This document shows, one piece after another, positions 21,768-33,660 of a stretch of DNA of 64,000 nucleotides (within the stretch, counting starts at the first letter, position 1; each line of letters opens with the position of its first letter). The notes under the pieces were generated by a model that saw only the letters and a program-made list of their open reading frames with translations, did not search any database and was not told the origin of the DNA. The stretch is from a virus. Lineage: Duplodnaviria > Caudoviricetes. Made by a program: the position numbers and the translations under genes. The stretch spans positions 11,399 through 75,398 of IMG/VR virus record IMGVR_UViG_3300032324_000938; one strand, given 5' to 3'.

Positions 21768-21849
21768 GCCGTTGTGAGTTGAGTGGTTGAAAACACCAGT
21801 TTTGTAAACTGGAAAATCATCGCAGGTTCGAATCCTGTCAACGGCTCCA
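21768..21849 (+). tRNA. tRNA-Thr(TGT)
   Basis: CCAGT-TTTGTAA-ACTGG; TTCGAAT T-loop; CCA. Confidence 0.85.
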
Positions 21850-21861
21850 GTTTATAGTAAT

Positions 21862-21937
21862 GGTGATATTGGTGTAACAGTTAGCATTTGAGTTTGTGAA
21901 ACTCACGGAACGAGGGCGGCACTCGTATATCACCCCA
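21862..21937 (+). tRNA. tRNA-His(GTG), encoded G-1:C73
   Basis: TGAGT-TTGTGAA-ACTCA; T-loop GGCGGCA; CCA. Confidence 0.85.
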
Positions 21938-21945
21938 ATTTTAAT

Positions 21946-22021
21946 TACCCTATCGTCTAGGTTTAGGACGGATGTGTTCTCTGAGACATCAACCTTGGTG
22001 AAAATCCAAGTGGGGTAACCA
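21946..22021 (+). tRNA. tRNA with 10-nt anticodon loop, Gln(CTG)- or Glu-like
   Basis: Cloverleaf; GATGT-GTTCTCTGAG-ACATC; CCA. Confidence 0.6.
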
Positions 22022-22027
22022 ATTTAT

Positions 22028-22105
22028 GCTTCGGTGGTGAAAATGGATTTATCACACAACGCTACGAACGTTGAGTTTGGGGTTCGAATCCTCACTGAAG
22101 CGCCA
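22028..22105 (+). tRNA. tRNA-Arg(ACG)
   Basis: CAACG-CTACGAA-CGTTG; CCA. Confidence 0.9.
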
Positions 22106-22112
22106 ATTTAAT

Positions 22113-22187
22113 GGCCTATTCGACAACCAGCTAAGTCACCTGACTTTCACTCAGGAGTAGCCGGGGCAGCACCGGCATAGGCTACCA
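22113..22187 (+). tRNA. tRNA-Glu(TTC)
   Basis: CCTGA-CTTTCAC-TCAGG; T-loop GGCAGCA. Confidence 0.9.
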
Positions 22188-22292
22188 TTTTAAAAGTGAC
22201 GAGGGCAACAAAGAGACTTAAACCCAAAAGATTGAAGGAGCCCTTGCATGCCGGGTAATTCCTACTGGGGTAATCTCGTCACAATATTTAAC

Positions 22293-22369
22293 GGTCACAT
22301 CGTCTATGTGTGTTAGGACACCATCCTCTCAAGATGGAGAATAGGGTTCAAATCCCAATGCGACTACCA
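22293..22369 (+). tRNA. tRNA-Glu(CTC)
   Basis: CCATC-CTCTCAA-GATGG; CCA. Confidence 0.85.
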
Positions 22370-22457
22370 TTTTTTGAGGTTCACACAGTATTACATAACC
22401 GTGATCAAGGTCTATAAATGATGTATTAACTGATTGGCTCAGACGACCTCAATAAAT

Positions 22458-22532
22458 ATCCGCCAATGTTCCAAGGATTAGGCGACAGGCTCTCCAAAAG
22501 CCCGTGGGTAAGTTCGATTCTTACGGTGGATG
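22458..22532 (+). tRNA. tRNA-Trp(CCA), no complete encoded CCA end
   Basis: GGCT-CTCCAAA-AGCC; TTCGATT. Confidence 0.8.
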
Positions 22533-22581
22533 CATTTCAAAAAAAATAATATTATTTGAGTTCGTGTCTATATTTATTATT

Positions 22582-23253
22582 ATGGACACGAACGCTCAAT
22601 ATAAATACACGATATATAAGATTACAAATAAATTGAACCAAAAAATTTACATTGGAATGCATAAAACAAAAAATTTGCAGGACAATTATATGGGTTCTGG
22701 AAAACTTCTAAAAAGAGCAATACAAAAATATGGTGAAGAAAATTTTATTAAAGAAATTTTATTTATATTTGATACCGCTGAAGAAATGTTTTCCAAAGAA
22801 AGAGAAATTGTAAACCAATTATTTATTGAATCAAATAATACTTACAATATAATGGAAGGTGGTTATGGCGGTTATTCTTATATAAACGAATCTGGAAAAA
22901 ATATACATCATAAAAATATTGAGATTAGGAAAAAGAATTTGTTGACCGGAGATAAGATAAAAGAATTTTTAATTGAAAAAGGATTATTTGAAGAATGGAA
23001 ACAGAAAGTATCAACATCTTTAAAGGAAAAATGGAAACAAAATGCTTTTCATTGGACCGGTAAAAAACATAAAGAAGATACAAAAAAGAAAATCGGAGAA
23101 AAACTAAAAGTAGCACAATCCGGTGCAAAAAATTCCCAATATGGAACTTGTTGGGTATATCATTCTGAAACAAATAAAAATCTTAAAATTAAAAAAGAAC
23201 AACTACAAACATACTTGACAAACGGATATGTTAAAGGTAGAGTATATAAATAA
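22582..23253 (+). CDS. Seg-like GIY-YIG homing endonuclease with NUMOD3 motif, inside the tRNA cluster
   Basis: YTIYKITNKLNQKIYIGMH, YMGSG, YNIMEGG, GKKHKEDTKKKI; TATTTAT upstream. Confidence 0.9.
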   Translation: MDTNAQYKYTIYKITNKLNQKIYIGMHKTKNLQDNYMGSGKLLKRAIQKYGEENFIKEILFIFDTAEEMFSKEREIVNQLFIESNNTYNIMEGGYGGYSYINESGKNIHHKNIEIRKKNLLTGDKIKEFLIEKGLFEEWKQKVSTSLKEKWKQNAFHWTGKKHKEDTKKKIGEKLKVAQSGAKNSQYGTCWVYHSETNKNLKIKKEQLQTYLTNGYVKGRVYK

Positions 23254-23259
23254 TTTTCA

Positions 23260-23372
23260 AATACATTAGGTGAAGGCAACGAACGTAGCTTAACTGGTAA
23301 AGCAACTGCGCTGTATGCAGGAGTCATTCAGTTCGAATCTGAATCAATAGTTGAAGTAGTAAGTAATGTATT
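23260..23372 (+). ncRNA. tRNA-like module inside a long closing stem (Y-RNA/YrlA-like candidate)
   Basis: D-arm TAGCTTAACTGGTAAAGC; T-arm TTCAG-TTCGAAT-CTGAA; outer stem AATACATTA/TAATGTATT; no CCA. Confidence 0.45.
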
Positions 23373-23400
23373 GACACTGATAGACATTGAAGGTTATAAT
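23371..23400 (+). promoter_or_regulatory. sigma70-type promoter
   Basis: TTGACA-18-TATAAT. Confidence 0.6.
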
Positions 23401-31539: not shown

Positions 31540-31545
31540 TTTAAA

Positions 31546-31619
31546 GCGGGTGTGATGTAACGGTAGTCTGGGGCTCTTCCAAAGCCCATGAGAGGGTTCG
31601 ATTCCCTCTACCCGCTCCA
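31546..31619 (+). tRNA. tRNA-Gly(TCC)
   Basis: GGGCT-CTTCCAA-AGCCC. Confidence 0.9.
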
Positions 31620-31626
31620 ATTTAAC

Positions 31627-31700
31627 TGGGGATTTGCATAATGGTAGTGCGGCAGACTTTGAATCTGCTTGTGGTGGTTCGATTCCATCATCCCCAACCA
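31627..31700 (+). tRNA. tRNA-Gln(TTG)
   Basis: GCAGA-CTTTGAA-TCTGC. Confidence 0.9.
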
Positions 31701-31819
31701 TTTTATATATGTCGGTTAAGGGTGTAATTTTAGAGAAATTGTAATGAGTGATCATCAGTTACAAGAGTAAGAACTAGTGATCGAAAGATCCGTTCATCAA
31801 ACACCGACAACAATTTATT

Positions 31820-31896
31820 CGGGGTGTATTGTCAATTAGGAGACGGCCTGATCTGGAGTCAGGAAGCTGCAGGTGCAAGTCCTGTCACCCCGACCA
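31820..31896 (+). tRNA. tRNA-Pro(TGG), atypical C33/A37
   Basis: CCTGA-TCTGGAG-TCAGG; Pro-type acceptor CGGGGTG; T-loop TGCAAGT. Confidence 0.75.
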
Positions 31897-32224
31897 TTTT
31901 TATATCAGACAATGGTAGAGGTTTGAACTTGGCTAGGTCTGAAACAATAACCAACGGCTGTGTTCGGCTAATAATCTGTGGGTTAAATATGCCCATAAAA
32001 CCGCCAAGGTGTCTGAGATAAGTTTTAGATTTGATCGTTGGTGTATAGAATTATAGCACTCTGCCATTAGGAGGTAGATGAGACTGAAGTTGACGAGATA
32101 GACATTCGATTTAAGTTTATGGTTTCTGTGCGCACAGTGCCGTTGGACTTGACCGAAATATGGAACGCTTAGTGAAATCCTCGTATATTCGCAAGTCACG
32201 GTCATCCAATTTTTGTTTTTTGAT

Positions 32225-32253
32225 TTGACTTATACTATATATTGGTGTAAGAT
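32225..32253 (+). promoter_or_regulatory. sigma70-type promoter 8 nt before tRNA-Ala
   Basis: TTGACT-17-TAAGAT. Confidence 0.65.
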
Positions 32254-32261
32254 TTATAAAT

Positions 32262-32336
32262 GGGCTGTTAGTGATAGTGGTAGCACGGGAGCTTTGCAAG
32301 CTTTAGGGAAGAGTTCGATTCTCTTACGGTCCACCA
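32262..32336 (+). tRNA. tRNA-Ala(TGC)
   Basis: GGAGC-TTTGCAA-GCTTT; G3:U70. Confidence 0.85.
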
Positions 32337-32341
32337 TTTTT

Positions 32342-32914
32342 ATGAATGTTAGTGATAAATATAAATTGTTATGGTTTGCTACTCCGCGTTCTGCGAGTAG
32401 AACACTACACACAATATTTTGGGATAAATTACAGTTCAAAAACATATATGATTTGAATTGTAGTATGTATACGCATGAAGTTGTATATGATCATAGTATA
32501 TACAATGATTACAAAATAATAATGTGTGTAAGAAATCCGTATTCAAAGTATGTGTCAACATGGCAATGGGCACTAAATGAGTATAATACATTTGAAAATT
32601 TTATTTTATCAGATTATAATTGGATGGATGTAGAAAATCATGTAATTAATATTTGTGAAACATATAGTAGATCTATTGAGTATTTGATTAAATATGAAAA
32701 TATTGATAATGATGTTGTAAAATTACCATATGATTTAAATTTTGGTTGTGTCAAACAAAATGTATATAAATCTAATTTAAAAAGAATAGATGATGGTAAA
32801 TATAGTGATTATCAATTTTATTATAATCAACAATTAGCGGATGAAGTTTTTAAACGTAACCAAAACATATTTGAATTTTTTGGTTATGAAAGAGATAGTT
32901 GGAAATACTTATAA
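32342..32914 (+). CDS. Sulfotransferase-family protein
   Basis: TPRSASRT (5'-PSB-like), VRNPYSKYVSTW (3'-PB-like), IKYEN, FEFFGY; start reassigned past the tRNA. Confidence 0.75.
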   Translation: MNVSDKYKLLWFATPRSASRTLHTIFWDKLQFKNIYDLNCSMYTHEVVYDHSIYNDYKIIMCVRNPYSKYVSTWQWALNEYNTFENFILSDYNWMDVENHVINICETYSRSIEYLIKYENIDNDVVKLPYDLNFGCVKQNVYKSNLKRIDDGKYSDYQFYYNQQLADEVFKRNQNIFEFFGYERDSWKYL

Positions 32915-32924
32915 TTTAAAGAGC

Positions 32925-32998
32925 GCGGGTATGATGTAGTGGTAGCCTGCAACCTTGCCAAGGTCGATGTGCCGGTTCAATTCCGGCTACCCGCTCCA
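32925..32998 (+). tRNA. tRNA-Gly(GCC)
   Basis: ACC-TTGCCAA-GGT; CCA. Confidence 0.85.
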
Positions 32999-33008
32999 TT
33001 TTAATATT

Positions 33009-33269
33009 ATGGATTCAGTTGAAAAAATAAAAAAACAAATACAAGACTTGGAATCCAAGTTAGAAGATTTGCGTGATGAATTGGATAAAAAGGATAATAA
33101 TCCAATTGAATCCATGAGTATTAAAAAAGAAATTGGTGATTTGGTTAAAAATATAAATAACTTAAAAGGTAAGTTACCTGTTGACAAAGAGAAGGCAAAG
33201 ATGTATTTTGATCTAATGCGTAAGGCAATTAGTGAAAAACTAACATATAAAGAATTTTTTGATCTTTAA
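33009..33269 (+). CDS. Small coiled-coil protein
   Basis: 86 aa from MDSVEK. Confidence 0.65.
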   Translation: MDSVEKIKKQIQDLESKLEDLRDELDKKDNNPIESMSIKKEIGDLVKNINNLKGKLPVDKEKAKMYFDLMRKAISEKLTYKEFFDL

Positions 33270-33277
33270 CATTTTAT

Positions 33278-33660
33278 GGGCACATACTGGTTTCGATTTA
33301 AGATTCTAGTACAGTTAGGCATGTAGAGGATGATAGTTGGCCTCTTAAAATTTCTATCAAAACATTAACTGCTGAAGATAATGTAATTAGCTATGATTTC
33401 ACCTCCCGTGATGTAGTAGCACTAGCAGCCTAAAGGTTGCGCATTCAATATAATGATGTCTGATAATTATGTTGGGTGTAAAACATCAGACTGGATTGAT
33501 CATTTAATTTGCGTGATTAATTAAGATTTTAGTAAATTTTAAGGGAAATATTTTTAGATATTTTGTATTATTTCCATTAAAAATAATAAAATATATAAAC
33601 ATGTAGTCTGATTGTAGTAATATTTTAAAGACGCGAGTTCAACTCTCGCTGTGTCCACCA
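33278..33660 (+). ncRNA. ssrA: tmRNA; tag AEDNVISYDFTSRDVVALAA (33371-33433)
   Basis: 5' GGGCACA..GGTTTCGA; 3' GAGTTCAACTC..TGTGTCCACCA with G3:U70; tag ends ALAA-stop. Confidence 0.92.

Follow-up and report, generated by a model that had tools for sequence, protein, structure and literature searches.

Missed tRNAs, non-decoding tRNA derivatives and orphan folded RNAs between the tRNA genes of an uncultured freshwater phage

We analyzed a 64,000-nt stretch of DNA from a Caudoviricetes virus (positions 11,399 to 75,398 of the IMG/VR record IMGVR_UViG_3300032324_000938; hereafter, the window), which carries two blocks of transfer RNA (tRNA) genes on its plus strand (21768-26980 and 30740-32998) and, downstream of them, a transfer-messenger RNA (tmRNA) gene. 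ARAGORN recognized 21 tRNA-type genes and the tmRNA in this region, to which Rfam added three tRNAs (Lys-CUU at 24625, Ile-GAU at 25833, and Leu-UAA at 31085). The units lying between these genes, all on the tRNA strand and bracketed by sigma70-like promoters, are a mixture of three kinds (Table 1): tRNAs missed by standard annotation, about nine non-decoding tRNA derivatives (psi23279, E4, E5, E7, E9b, E14, the unit at 21946, an insert-bearing tRNA-Asn, and probably E11), and about 11 orphan folded RNAs, among them E0b, E1, E2, E3, E6, E8, E9, E10, E12, and E13 (E8 and E9, which have only faint tRNA-like features, are counted with the orphans). We consider, with a probability of about 70%, that the two blocks are polycistronic operons in which tRNAs with a variant elbow, non-decoding tRNA derivatives, and hairpin-closed RNAs are co-transcribed, maintained by selection, and released as small RNAs. 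The hairpin-closed RNAs have no detectable relatives outside this phage group.

Table 1. Features in and around the two tRNA operons of the window (related loci are designated by L and a number)
Feature	Position	Strand	Description
Elbow-variant tRNA-His(GUG)	21862..21937	+	Encoded G-1:C73; T-loop GGCGGCA; from acceptor and CCA scan
Unit at 21946	21946..22021	+	tRNA-shaped RNA; 10-nt anticodon loop (GUUCUCUGAG); T-loop UGAAAAU; CCA end
Elbow-variant tRNA-Glu(UUC)	22113..22187	+	T-loop GGCAGCA; from acceptor and CCA scan
E1	22196..22284	+	89-nt orphan; 9-bp closing helix; no CCA
E2	22374..22452	+	77-nt orphan; 8-bp closing helix
GIY-YIG gene	22583-23253	+	Homing endonuclease (SegE-like) gene interrupting the array
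psi23279	23277..23352	+	tRNA-like; canonical D and T arms; no acceptor stem; hypervariable anticodon-like loop
E0b	23354..23447	+	Abundant RNA segment; perfect TTGACA-18-TATAAT match (12/12); conserved in 10 variants
tRNA-Asn(GUU)	23546..23671	+	Anticodon interrupted by 51-nt insert (23578-23628, position ambiguous by 2 nt)
E3	23686..23801	+	AT-rich 115-nt long hairpin; 14-bp closing helix (p=0.004)
Elbow-variant tRNA-Tyr(GUA)	23808..23893	+	Class II, long variable arm; T-loop AGCAUUA; 99% identical in L001 and L121
E4	23897..24158	+	262-nt RNA on an apparent tRNA frame; 7-bp closing stem and ACCA
E5	24166..24245	+	tRNA-Ile(GAU) derivative; anticodon lost (loop GCGACU); canonical T arm; 9-bp closing helix; no CCA
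Elbow-variant tRNA-Lys(CUU)	24418..24496	+	T-loop GGCAGUA
E6	24499..24615	+	115-nt orphan; 9-bp closing helix; one 98% copy (L056)
ORF	24687-25238	-	Interrupts the array; grouped with homing-endonuclease-type genes
E7	25255..25300	+	Hairpin and ACCA; 9-bp closing helix; adjoins minus-strand ORF 24687-25238
E8	25306..25389	+	84 nt; T-arm-like hairpin; ACCA end
Elbow-variant tRNA-Lys(UUU)	25393..25471	+	T-loop AGCAUUA
E9	25478..25555	+	78-nt three-hairpin RNA; ACCA end
E9b	25620..25715	+	Truncated tRNA-like; anticodon-like and T arms; no acceptor stem
E10	25911..26040	+	109 nt; 7-bp closing helix and CCA, then terminator-like hairpin (26014-26037) with T-run
E11	26130..26199	+	67 nt; 10-bp closing helix (p=0.026); T-arm-like GGGUUCAAUUCCC
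Protein gene	26403-26882		Within the studied coordinates
Four protein genes	27209-30391		Within the studied coordinates
Elbow-variant tRNA-Ser(UGA)	31270..31356	+	Class II; T-loop UGCGAGU; from acceptor and CCA scan
Elbow-variant tRNA-Ser(GCU)	31447..31539	+	Class II; T-loop GGCAGCA
E12	31710..31809	+	100-nt orphan; 7-bp closing helix; one near-identical copy (L165)
Elbow-variant second tRNA-Pro(UGG)	31820..31896	+	C33 for U33; T-loop UGCAAGU
E13	31905..32016	+	113-nt orphan; 7-bp closing helix; 97% identical in L001 and L165
E14	32032..32208	+	177-nt expanded tRNA-like RNA; acceptor stem and UCCA; canonical 5' half with UAG loop
tmRNA	33278..33660	+	Phage tmRNA at the end of the second operon; ARAGORN; Rfam 110 bits; RNA depth 36-359

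The initial annotation of this region had described at least 12 GC-richer elements, placed between the tRNAs at the same T/A-rich spacing, closed by terminal stems of 6-10 bp, devoid of open reading frames (ORFs), and unexplained. Their number and spacing are borne out, as there are well over 12 of them, and at least 12 even once the missed tRNAs are set aside, and each is followed by an A/T-rich linker of 6-16 nt like those that follow the tRNAs. The GC content of the inter-tRNA stretches is 0.36-0.56, compared with 0.24-0.30 in control coding pieces. Closure by a terminal stem held in part. A scan for a 7-bp acceptor stem followed by N, CCA, and a T-rich linker retrieved nine additional CCA-ended units, E4 and E14 have a 7-bp closing stem with NCCA, and ten further units are closed by helices of 7-14 bp (Table 1), but E8, E9, E9b, and psi23279/E0b are not closed by a stem. 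None of the ORFs of 40-106 aa that overlap the units is credible, as they cross tRNAs or cassettes without counterpart in relatives. By contrast, the description of the units as unexplained fails for eight CCA-ended ones, which appear to be decoding tRNAs with an altered elbow, and also for E7 (a 3' piece of a tRNA-Lys), E5 (an anticodon-less tRNA-Ile), and other tRNA derivatives or fragments.

The units share very little sequence: in an all-against-all comparison the longest common stretch did not exceed 11 nt, and the closing helices of 7-14 bp are all different. E1, E2, E3, E6, E8, E9, E10, E12, and E13 showed no similarity to tRNAs, to one another, or to Rfam families. Rfam searches at gathering thresholds, and at E-values up to 10 over 21000-34000, yielded only weak tRNA matches for the units and no ribozyme or antitoxin RNA family, and when 21300-26400 was compared with GenBank phages by blastn, nothing but the gene for the GIY-YIG homing endonuclease was matched. 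The hidden Markov models (HMMs) of all units other than E4 found no homologues in four more distant arrays (L174-L177), and a scan with the D-arm 14-mer ACAATAGACGGGCA provided a few useful relatives, the matches listed being mostly due to chance.

The eight elbow-variant tRNAs (His-GUG, Glu-UUC, Tyr-GUA, Lys-CUU, Lys-UUU, Ser-UGA, Ser-GCU, and a second Pro-UGG) are, judging from their sequences, most likely ordinary decoding tRNAs. All eight have seven of seven acceptor pairs and NCCA followed by the usual A/T linker, together with a 5-bp anticodon stem, a 7-nt loop, U33 (except in the second Pro), and a purine at position 37, and the unconstrained minimum free energy fold is a cloverleaf for His, Glu, Tyr, Lys-UUU, Ser-GCU, and Pro. 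They resemble canonical elongator tRNAs (RF00005) in their acceptor, CCA, and anticodon arm, in the class II arms of Tyr and Ser, and in the G-1:C73 pair of His, but they differ in the elbow, where the family consensus (G18 G19; U54 U55 C56) is broken. Position 55 is G in all of them, with C56 and G19 kept; their T-loops have the forms RGCRUWA, GGCRGCA, and UGCRAKU in place of UUCRAWU, position 54 is often a purine paired to U58, and AG replaces GG in most of the D-loops inspected. One relative of the Lys family has the standard GG D-loop and the standard UUCGAAU T-loop together, suggesting that D-loop and T-loop change in concert. Because of these altered loops, none of the eight was called by ARAGORN under default detection or exceeded the Rfam RF00005 cut-off (the second Pro reached 27.9 against 29 bits), and lowering the ARAGORN threshold to 85% recovered only Lys-UUU and Pro.

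Homologues of these tRNAs in related arrays point to the same identities. At the matching array positions in L001, ARAGORN calls a tRNA-His and a tRNA-Glu(ttc), the former so diverged that alignments do not reach 70% of the unit and the latter too diverged for alignment; close copies exist elsewhere for His (L056, 95%; L080, 99%) and Glu (L121, 100%; L134, 93%). Likewise, ARAGORN calls tRNA-Ser(tga) for the aligned L007 copy of tRNA-Ser(UGA) (90% identical) and for an L003 copy, whereas Rfam gives only a weak match, to tRNA-Sec. For tRNA-Ser(GCU), the genes at the matching position in L003 and L004 are called tRNA-Ser(gct), with ~76-78% identity within longer blocks, and near-identical copies occur in L007 (100%), L059 (97%), and L001 (95%). 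The aligned Lys homologue of L017 is also called by ARAGORN, and the Lys family alignment contains many compensatory changes in the acceptor stem. The C33 of the second tRNA-Pro, at a position where U is nearly universal, is found in L059 too; other homologues have U33, those of L001 and L007 with the anticodon UGG. With the elbow-variant tRNAs included, the array encodes 31 tRNAs for 19 amino acids, Met alone being missing; His, Tyr, Lys, Ser, and Glu(UUC) are supplied by these tRNAs and are absent from the recognized genes. We found no CCA-adding enzyme in five related records, four of which are fragments, which fits the fact that CCA is encoded in almost every unit.

Descent from a tRNA that has lost a decoding feature can be recognized in E5, E7, E9b, psi23279, E14, and E4, and was not found for E1, E2, E3, E6, E10, E12, or E13. 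psi23279 scores 28.8 bits against the Rfam tRNA model, slightly below the 29-bit cut-off, and its loop varies among ten variants in both sequence and length (6-8 nt), whereas the rest of the molecule is nearly invariant; one pair of the anticodon-like stem alternates between U:A and C:G (five variants each) and no pair is broken. E5 has an allele, 91% identical, in L121, L162, L166, and L167, and ARAGORN calls the copies of L121, L065, and L162 tRNA-Ile(gat); its substitutions (one double and four one-sided) break no pairs. The final 20 nt of E7 are 100% identical to the 3' end of the tRNA-Lys(ctt) of L017, L056, and L151, which identifies E7 as a displaced 3' fragment of a tRNA-Lys(CUU) gene. 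E9b matches the Rfam tRNA model partially (25639-25696, model positions 8-63, 25.4 bits) and has two double changes among four variants; both E7 and E9b are probably relics. In the unit at 21946, ARAGORN reads a four-base anticodon 'ctct' (CUCU); it is 97-100% identical in six relatives, with three double changes in the acceptor and anticodon stems of an 83% copy in L151, and it could be either a frameshift-reading tRNA or a non-decoding mimic. The variable/T region of E14 is greatly enlarged. E14 shares with E4 the 5' sequence UGGUGUAUA and a GUGU/GCAC helix, which in E14 surrounds a short loop; its 73% copies are variable in the middle and conserved at both ends, and RNA contigs from relatives skip it exactly (joining 32016 to 32209, or 32022 to 32211).

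For E4, an exact 20-mer had no match in IMG/VR, which we then searched with a two-part pattern in which CATCGCATT lies 100-130 nt downstream of AATGCGATGGGC. Five further distinct copies were found, in L162 (identical to that of L160), L174, L175, L176, and L177, so that the family comprises six distinct members including that of the window, all of them located in large tRNA arrays and on the tRNA strand. Their mean identity is 76%, with long invariant blocks. RNAalifold predicted 50 pairs for the family, 31 of which are double-changed, with 93% of cells paired; none of 500 shuffles reached this covariation, and sliding the partners by 1-3 columns left only 4-7 double-changed pairs. The closing stem of 6-7 bp covaries in every member and is directly preceded by a T-like hairpin of 4-5 bp, so that an acceptor/T-arm-like top half is present throughout the family, with an ACCA end in two of the six members. 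At the D-stem position, the 4-bp GUGU/GCAC helix encloses a rod-like domain of ~185 nt, and there is an additional 6-bp arm with a 21-nt loop. E4 therefore looks like a tRNA frame that has acquired an additional domain within its D-loop, and the six molecules constitute a new family of ~250-nt RNAs with the outline of a tRNA. The invariant AAUGCGAUG of the large domain could pair with the invariant CAUCGCAUU of the 21-nt loop, a possible long-range contact in which both sides are invariant.

Several other observations concern E4. Its identification as a tmRNA was rejected, as the Rfam tmRNA models match only 33278-33660 and its acceptor stem (UCUCAAU/AUUGAGA) lacks the G3:U70 pair. The E4 motif gave 15 matches in bacterial genomes, all due to chance and none fitting the family HMM. 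One RNA run (X16) contained a 281-nt E4 contig with both ends on 24013-24042, the signature, in a k=31 graph, of a 251-nt circle joining 24146 to 23896; we give no weight to a circular E4 RNA, since the signature was obtained from a single run out of three that yielded E4 contigs, the circle leaves out the 3' strand of the covarying closing stem, and a few chimeric reads could account for it. In L001, a 128-aa HNH-like ORF (L001:4510-4896) occupies the site that E4 has in the window.

In tRNA-Asn(GUU), ARAGORN in intron mode predicts a 51-nt intron in the anticodon, and insert-free genes exist in L121, L065, and L059, with the anticodon loop CUGUUAA. An RNA contig of depth 47 passes directly from 23577 to 23629 and is thus insert-free. 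It carries two upstream variants (23468G and 23529C), both found in the insert-bearing L056 and L134, and no exon differences from the window among those listed, whereas every known insert-free DNA allele differs in its exons. This hints that the insert is removed at the RNA level, although an unsampled insert-free DNA strain would look alike. As in group I and archaeal bulge-helix-bulge introns, the insert interrupts the anticodon loop and insert-free alleles exist, but it lies at position 34-36 rather than 37/38 and, with 51 nt, is too short for a group I core (at least ~200 nt, P3-P9), nor does it match any Rfam intron at E-values up to 10. The splicing endonuclease (PF01974) and RtcB (PF01139) required for archaeal-type introns were not found in five related records (one rated complete and four fragments), and inspection of the insert junctions revealed no 3-4-3 bulge-helix-bulge; the insert might be removed by another route. 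Inserts in the anticodon region are also present in a tRNA gene of L162 (minus strand, just upstream of the E5 copy; ~85 nt) and in L001:4909-5005 (~45 nt), and L162 has a CCA-ended expanded unit of ~130 nt directly after its E4 copy; insert-bearing and expanded tRNAs thus recur in this phage group.

Among the orphans, E9 is the most widespread clade-specific unit, with nine distinct variants in 18 contigs. In its alignment 97.5% of cells are paired and three pairs are double-changed; of 500 shuffles, none reached its paired fraction, 14 its double-change count, and two its covariation score. Seven pairs are double-changed among five variants of E3, which possibly is a processing site, and three in an internal hairpin of E10 (columns 46-68). 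E8 is 100% identical in L001, L056, and L134, and in a diverged copy in L169 the hairpin shows three double changes, with two pairs broken. E1 (99-100% identical in L001, L119, and L056) is precisely absent from L134 and L121, and E2, of which a single near-identical copy is known (L164), is absent from an otherwise conserved site in L001, L134, and L056.

These units are found as RNA. We aligned four river and lake metatranscriptome contig sets to 19000-36000 at a minimum of 90% identity and obtained RNA depths of 10-350 in the bins of the array, compared with about 0-5 in 19000-21267 and about 0 in the ORFs at 24670-25236 and 29773-30339; as the array is covered far more deeply than the flanking ORFs, DNA carry-over cannot explain the signal. 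E4 is represented by contigs of 232-281 nt in three runs (depth 15-35, 97% identity), E5 reaches a depth of 36-130, and psi23279 one of 220-400, with 455-1016 in the adjoining E0b (at 23392). One E0b contig enters the Illumina adapter directly after ...GAAAUCCAG, which indicates a discrete 3' end of this RNA near 23447. Contig ends were rejected as RNA ends elsewhere, most of them lying within k-1 bases (30 nt) of strain variants. The suggestion of the initial annotation that the units are real RNAs co-transcribed with the tRNAs thus receives support from their strand, their tRNA-like conservation, their compensatory changes, and the 10-350x RNA cover of the array.

Could some of the units be cis-acting signals of the operon, namely promoters, RNase III-type processing hairpins, and terminators or attenuators? 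E3 forms one long, AT-rich hairpin that has seven compensatory pairs and a 14-bp closing helix, E10 finishes at its 3' end in a terminator-like hairpin with a T-run behind it, and E0b has a perfect promoter match, with other strong matches at 24388, 25203, and 31374. Moreover, in the 337-nt leader that precedes the first tRNA, a hairpin at 21725-21763 (plus strand), directly upstream of tRNA-Thr, has many compensatory changes among 11 relatives (alignment columns 311-333), the remaining leader being only 61-90% identical. E3, the terminator hairpin of E10, and the E0b promoter are probably operon signals. Nevertheless, the complex folds of E4, E9, and the body of E10, as well as the tRNA bodies of psi23279 and E5, remain unexplained by signals of this kind, and RNA as abundant as that of E0b is not expected from a pure promoter, so that as an account of the units themselves we regard cis action as doubtful.

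Another alternative is that the units are debris (pseudogenes, fragments, and scars) from a rapid turnover of tRNA genes through duplication, recombination at the repeated CCA-linker junctions, and homing endonucleases, transcribed only by virtue of their place in a strong operon and functionless. The displaced tRNA-Lys fragment E7 beside a minus-strand ORF, the truncated tRNA E9b, and the anticodon-less E5, present while a second Ile gene exists, are what such turnover would leave, and E2, E6, and E12 have only near-identical copies. The arrays are indeed mosaics, with cassettes gained or lost at exact unit boundaries among close relatives; each unit arrives together with its linker, and no clear target-site duplication is seen. 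The arrays also contain the GIY-YIG gene and HNH-like ORFs. The GIY-YIG gene is exactly missing from some relatives and RNA contigs (22533 joined to 23254).

Conservation argues otherwise. We gathered ~25 related arrays from IMG/VR and metagenomes and compared identities at 15 related loci, 14 of which hold at least one unit. The median identity of the units to those of the window was 91-99% in ten of the 14 loci, 73-83% in L059, L151, and L005, with one to three units each, and 95% in L080; for comparison, tRNAs are 73-99% identical, leaders 73-90%, and protein genes 64-91%. The units are therefore conserved like the tRNAs and more than leaders and coding sequence, and the non-decoding ones do not show the neutral decay expected of debris, since in most relatives they are 91-99% identical against 73-90% for the leaders and their changes keep the pairing. 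Pairing-preserving changes are found in E4, E9, E3, E10, psi23279, and E5, and also in E8 and E9b. The E4 family persists with its invariant blocks in divergent arrays, and in psi23279 the scaffold is nearly invariant and the loop alone changes. The picture of degraded, unconserved spacers holding decayed tRNA pseudogenes, which the initial annotation had named as what would refute it, does not describe this region, and we consider that functionless debris is an unlikely explanation for the units as a whole.

Some observations nonetheless weigh against co-transcribed, selected units released as small RNAs. Only four of 16 terminal helices are individually beyond chance in dinucleotide shuffles with flexible end offsets (combined p = 3e-4), and the z-scores of the folding free energy, at -0.2 to -2.6, are modest and do not surpass those of true tRNAs; tried as a discriminator, they did not separate units from controls. 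With this moderate helix enrichment and unremarkable folding energies, sequence alone would not prove the RNAs, which is done by the comparative and RNA data. Yet E1, E2, E6, E12, and E13 are known from near-identical copies only, which places their folds beyond the reach of covariation. The patchy presence of the units, missing from close relatives at exact boundaries, fits dispensability, and their near-identity may stem in part from recent exchange between phages, as the GIY-YIG block is 99.3% identical to that of L001, versus ~85% in adjacent blocks. Finally, RNA ends are known at one site only, since contigs in general cannot show 5' or 3' ends.

If the units are indeed co-transcribed and released as small RNAs, long precursors would be made from the sigma70-like promoters and the host RNase E would cut the A/U linkers. 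In its substrates, RNase P makes use of the RCCA tail and of the stacked acceptor and T arms. Here it would recognize the stem-plus-hairpin tops and RCCA tails and, together with RNase E/Z, release the units as stable small RNAs. Such a release by the tRNA-processing machinery is plausible in view of the A/U linkers, the RCCA tails of E4, E7, E8, E9, and E14, and the acceptor/T-arm-like top of all E4 family members. The elbow-variant tRNAs would decode, whereas the non-decoding RNAs would mimic tRNAs and engage proteins that recognize them. The preserved tRNA bodies, fast-changing loops, and abundance of the latter are what suggests mimicry aimed at such proteins, which we offer as a guess with rather low odds. 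Even more speculatively, the array might be a modular delivery system for trans-acting RNAs on a tRNA frame, with E4-family RNAs that catalyze or bind in a specific way, psi23279- and E5-type RNAs as fast-evolving decoys for host defenses that cut tRNAs, and the tRNA-Asn insert as a bacterial-virus tRNA intron of a new kind, removed at the RNA level.

A more specific proposal, already present in the initial annotation, is that the non-decoding RNAs form a translation-defense kit of decoys for anticodon nucleases, substrates or guides for RNA repair, or ribozymes. In psi23279 and E5 the tRNA body is preserved but the anticodon-like loop evolves rapidly, both rank with the array's most abundant RNAs, and the invariant blocks of E4, with their possible AAUGCGAUG/CAUCGCAUU pairing, are typical of RNAs with a specific activity. 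T4 Rnl1 repairs cut tRNA. Two relatives encode RNA ligases, a T4-type Rnl1-like one in G001 (C1:287636-288202, E=2e-16) and an Rnl2-like one in G002 (C1:101928-102410, E=6e-24), with the loci L170 and L171 covering both. However, these ligase genes come from relatives and not from the 75-kb contig of the window, the variable loops are unlike standard anticodon loops, and no known ribozyme or antitoxin RNA family matches in Rfam, even at E-values up to 10. A defense kit thus appears improbable on these comparisons.

Lastly, that the units would be small mobile elements of tRNA arrays, with their terminal helices acting as terminal inverted repeats, is very unlikely: the precise presence/absence polymorphism of E1, E2, E14, and the 51-nt Asn insert and the 7-14 bp terminal repeats would suit such elements, but no two units have terminal repeats or other sequence in common, each unit brings its own linker without clear target-site duplication and is present once per genome, the closing stem of E4 covaries as an RNA helix, and no unit has been found so far at unrelated non-array sites, the bacterial matches to the E4 motif being all due to chance.

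The 75-kb contig from which the window derives encodes baseplate and tail fiber genes, its relatives in IMG/VR reach 296-304 kb (one 296-kb contig is rated 100% complete), and the runs containing the sequence of the window are labeled as lake, river, and freshwater metagenomes; we read this phage as an uncultured freshwater giant myovirus. The protein-gene block at 26403-30391 includes a nuclease and an outer-membrane barrel protein, and a sulfotransferase-like gene also interrupts the tRNA blocks. The barrel protein is encoded by the ORF at 28710-29396 (plus strand), which we had suspected to be an RNA because of its high RNA depth and its GC content, above that of its neighbors; this was rejected, as its 228-aa product begins with a signal peptide and ends in ...YTF, as outer-membrane beta-barrel proteins typically do, and a terminator follows the gene. 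Covered 40-115x by RNA in all four metatranscriptomes, it has the appearance of a strongly expressed phage gene encoding a protein of the host envelope, which suggests that the host is Gram-negative.

The closest precedents for these RNAs are RNAC and RNAD of phage T4, two small RNAs without known function that are transcribed from its tRNA region (PMC3014915; PMC9697503), the stable RNA 'species 1 and 2', which accumulate during infection and have been validated by Northern blot (PMC9697503). The units described here correspond to these RNAs, likened by description, in their position within a phage tRNA operon and in their RNA cover as small non-tRNA RNAs, but there are ~20 of them instead of two, many are tRNA-derived, and they are swapped unit by unit. 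GOLLD and ROOL are large ornate RNAs associated with phage tRNA clusters. Like them (bioRxiv 10.1101/2024.12.08.627333), the E4 family has a complex conserved non-coding fold, but at ~250 nt it is far smaller, it resembles a tRNA in outline, and it fits neither of their Rfam models. Bacterial Y RNAs (YrlA), to which Ro60 binds, are tRNA mimics that do not decode and yet retain D and T arms like those of tRNAs (PMC4201824), as do non-decoding RNAs of this array, although these have no Rfam match, and psi23279 and E5 lack a long Ro-binding stem.

Phage tRNA clusters are usually taken as helpers in codon usage or as replacements for tRNAs destroyed by defense systems. The array studied here indicates that about a quarter of the tRNAs of such a cluster can escape standard annotation through an altered elbow, so that the tRNA counts of uncultured phages are underestimates. 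The same operons make many other conserved small RNAs, and the RNAC and RNAD of T4, which have lacked an explanation for 50 years, may represent the lower end of something general. E4 offers a concrete target for work on structure and function, with its ~250 nt, strong covariation, invariant blocks, and tRNA outline. More generally, the tRNA-derived units, with their lost anticodons, giant inserted domains, and variable loops, show tRNA genes in the process of becoming new RNAs.

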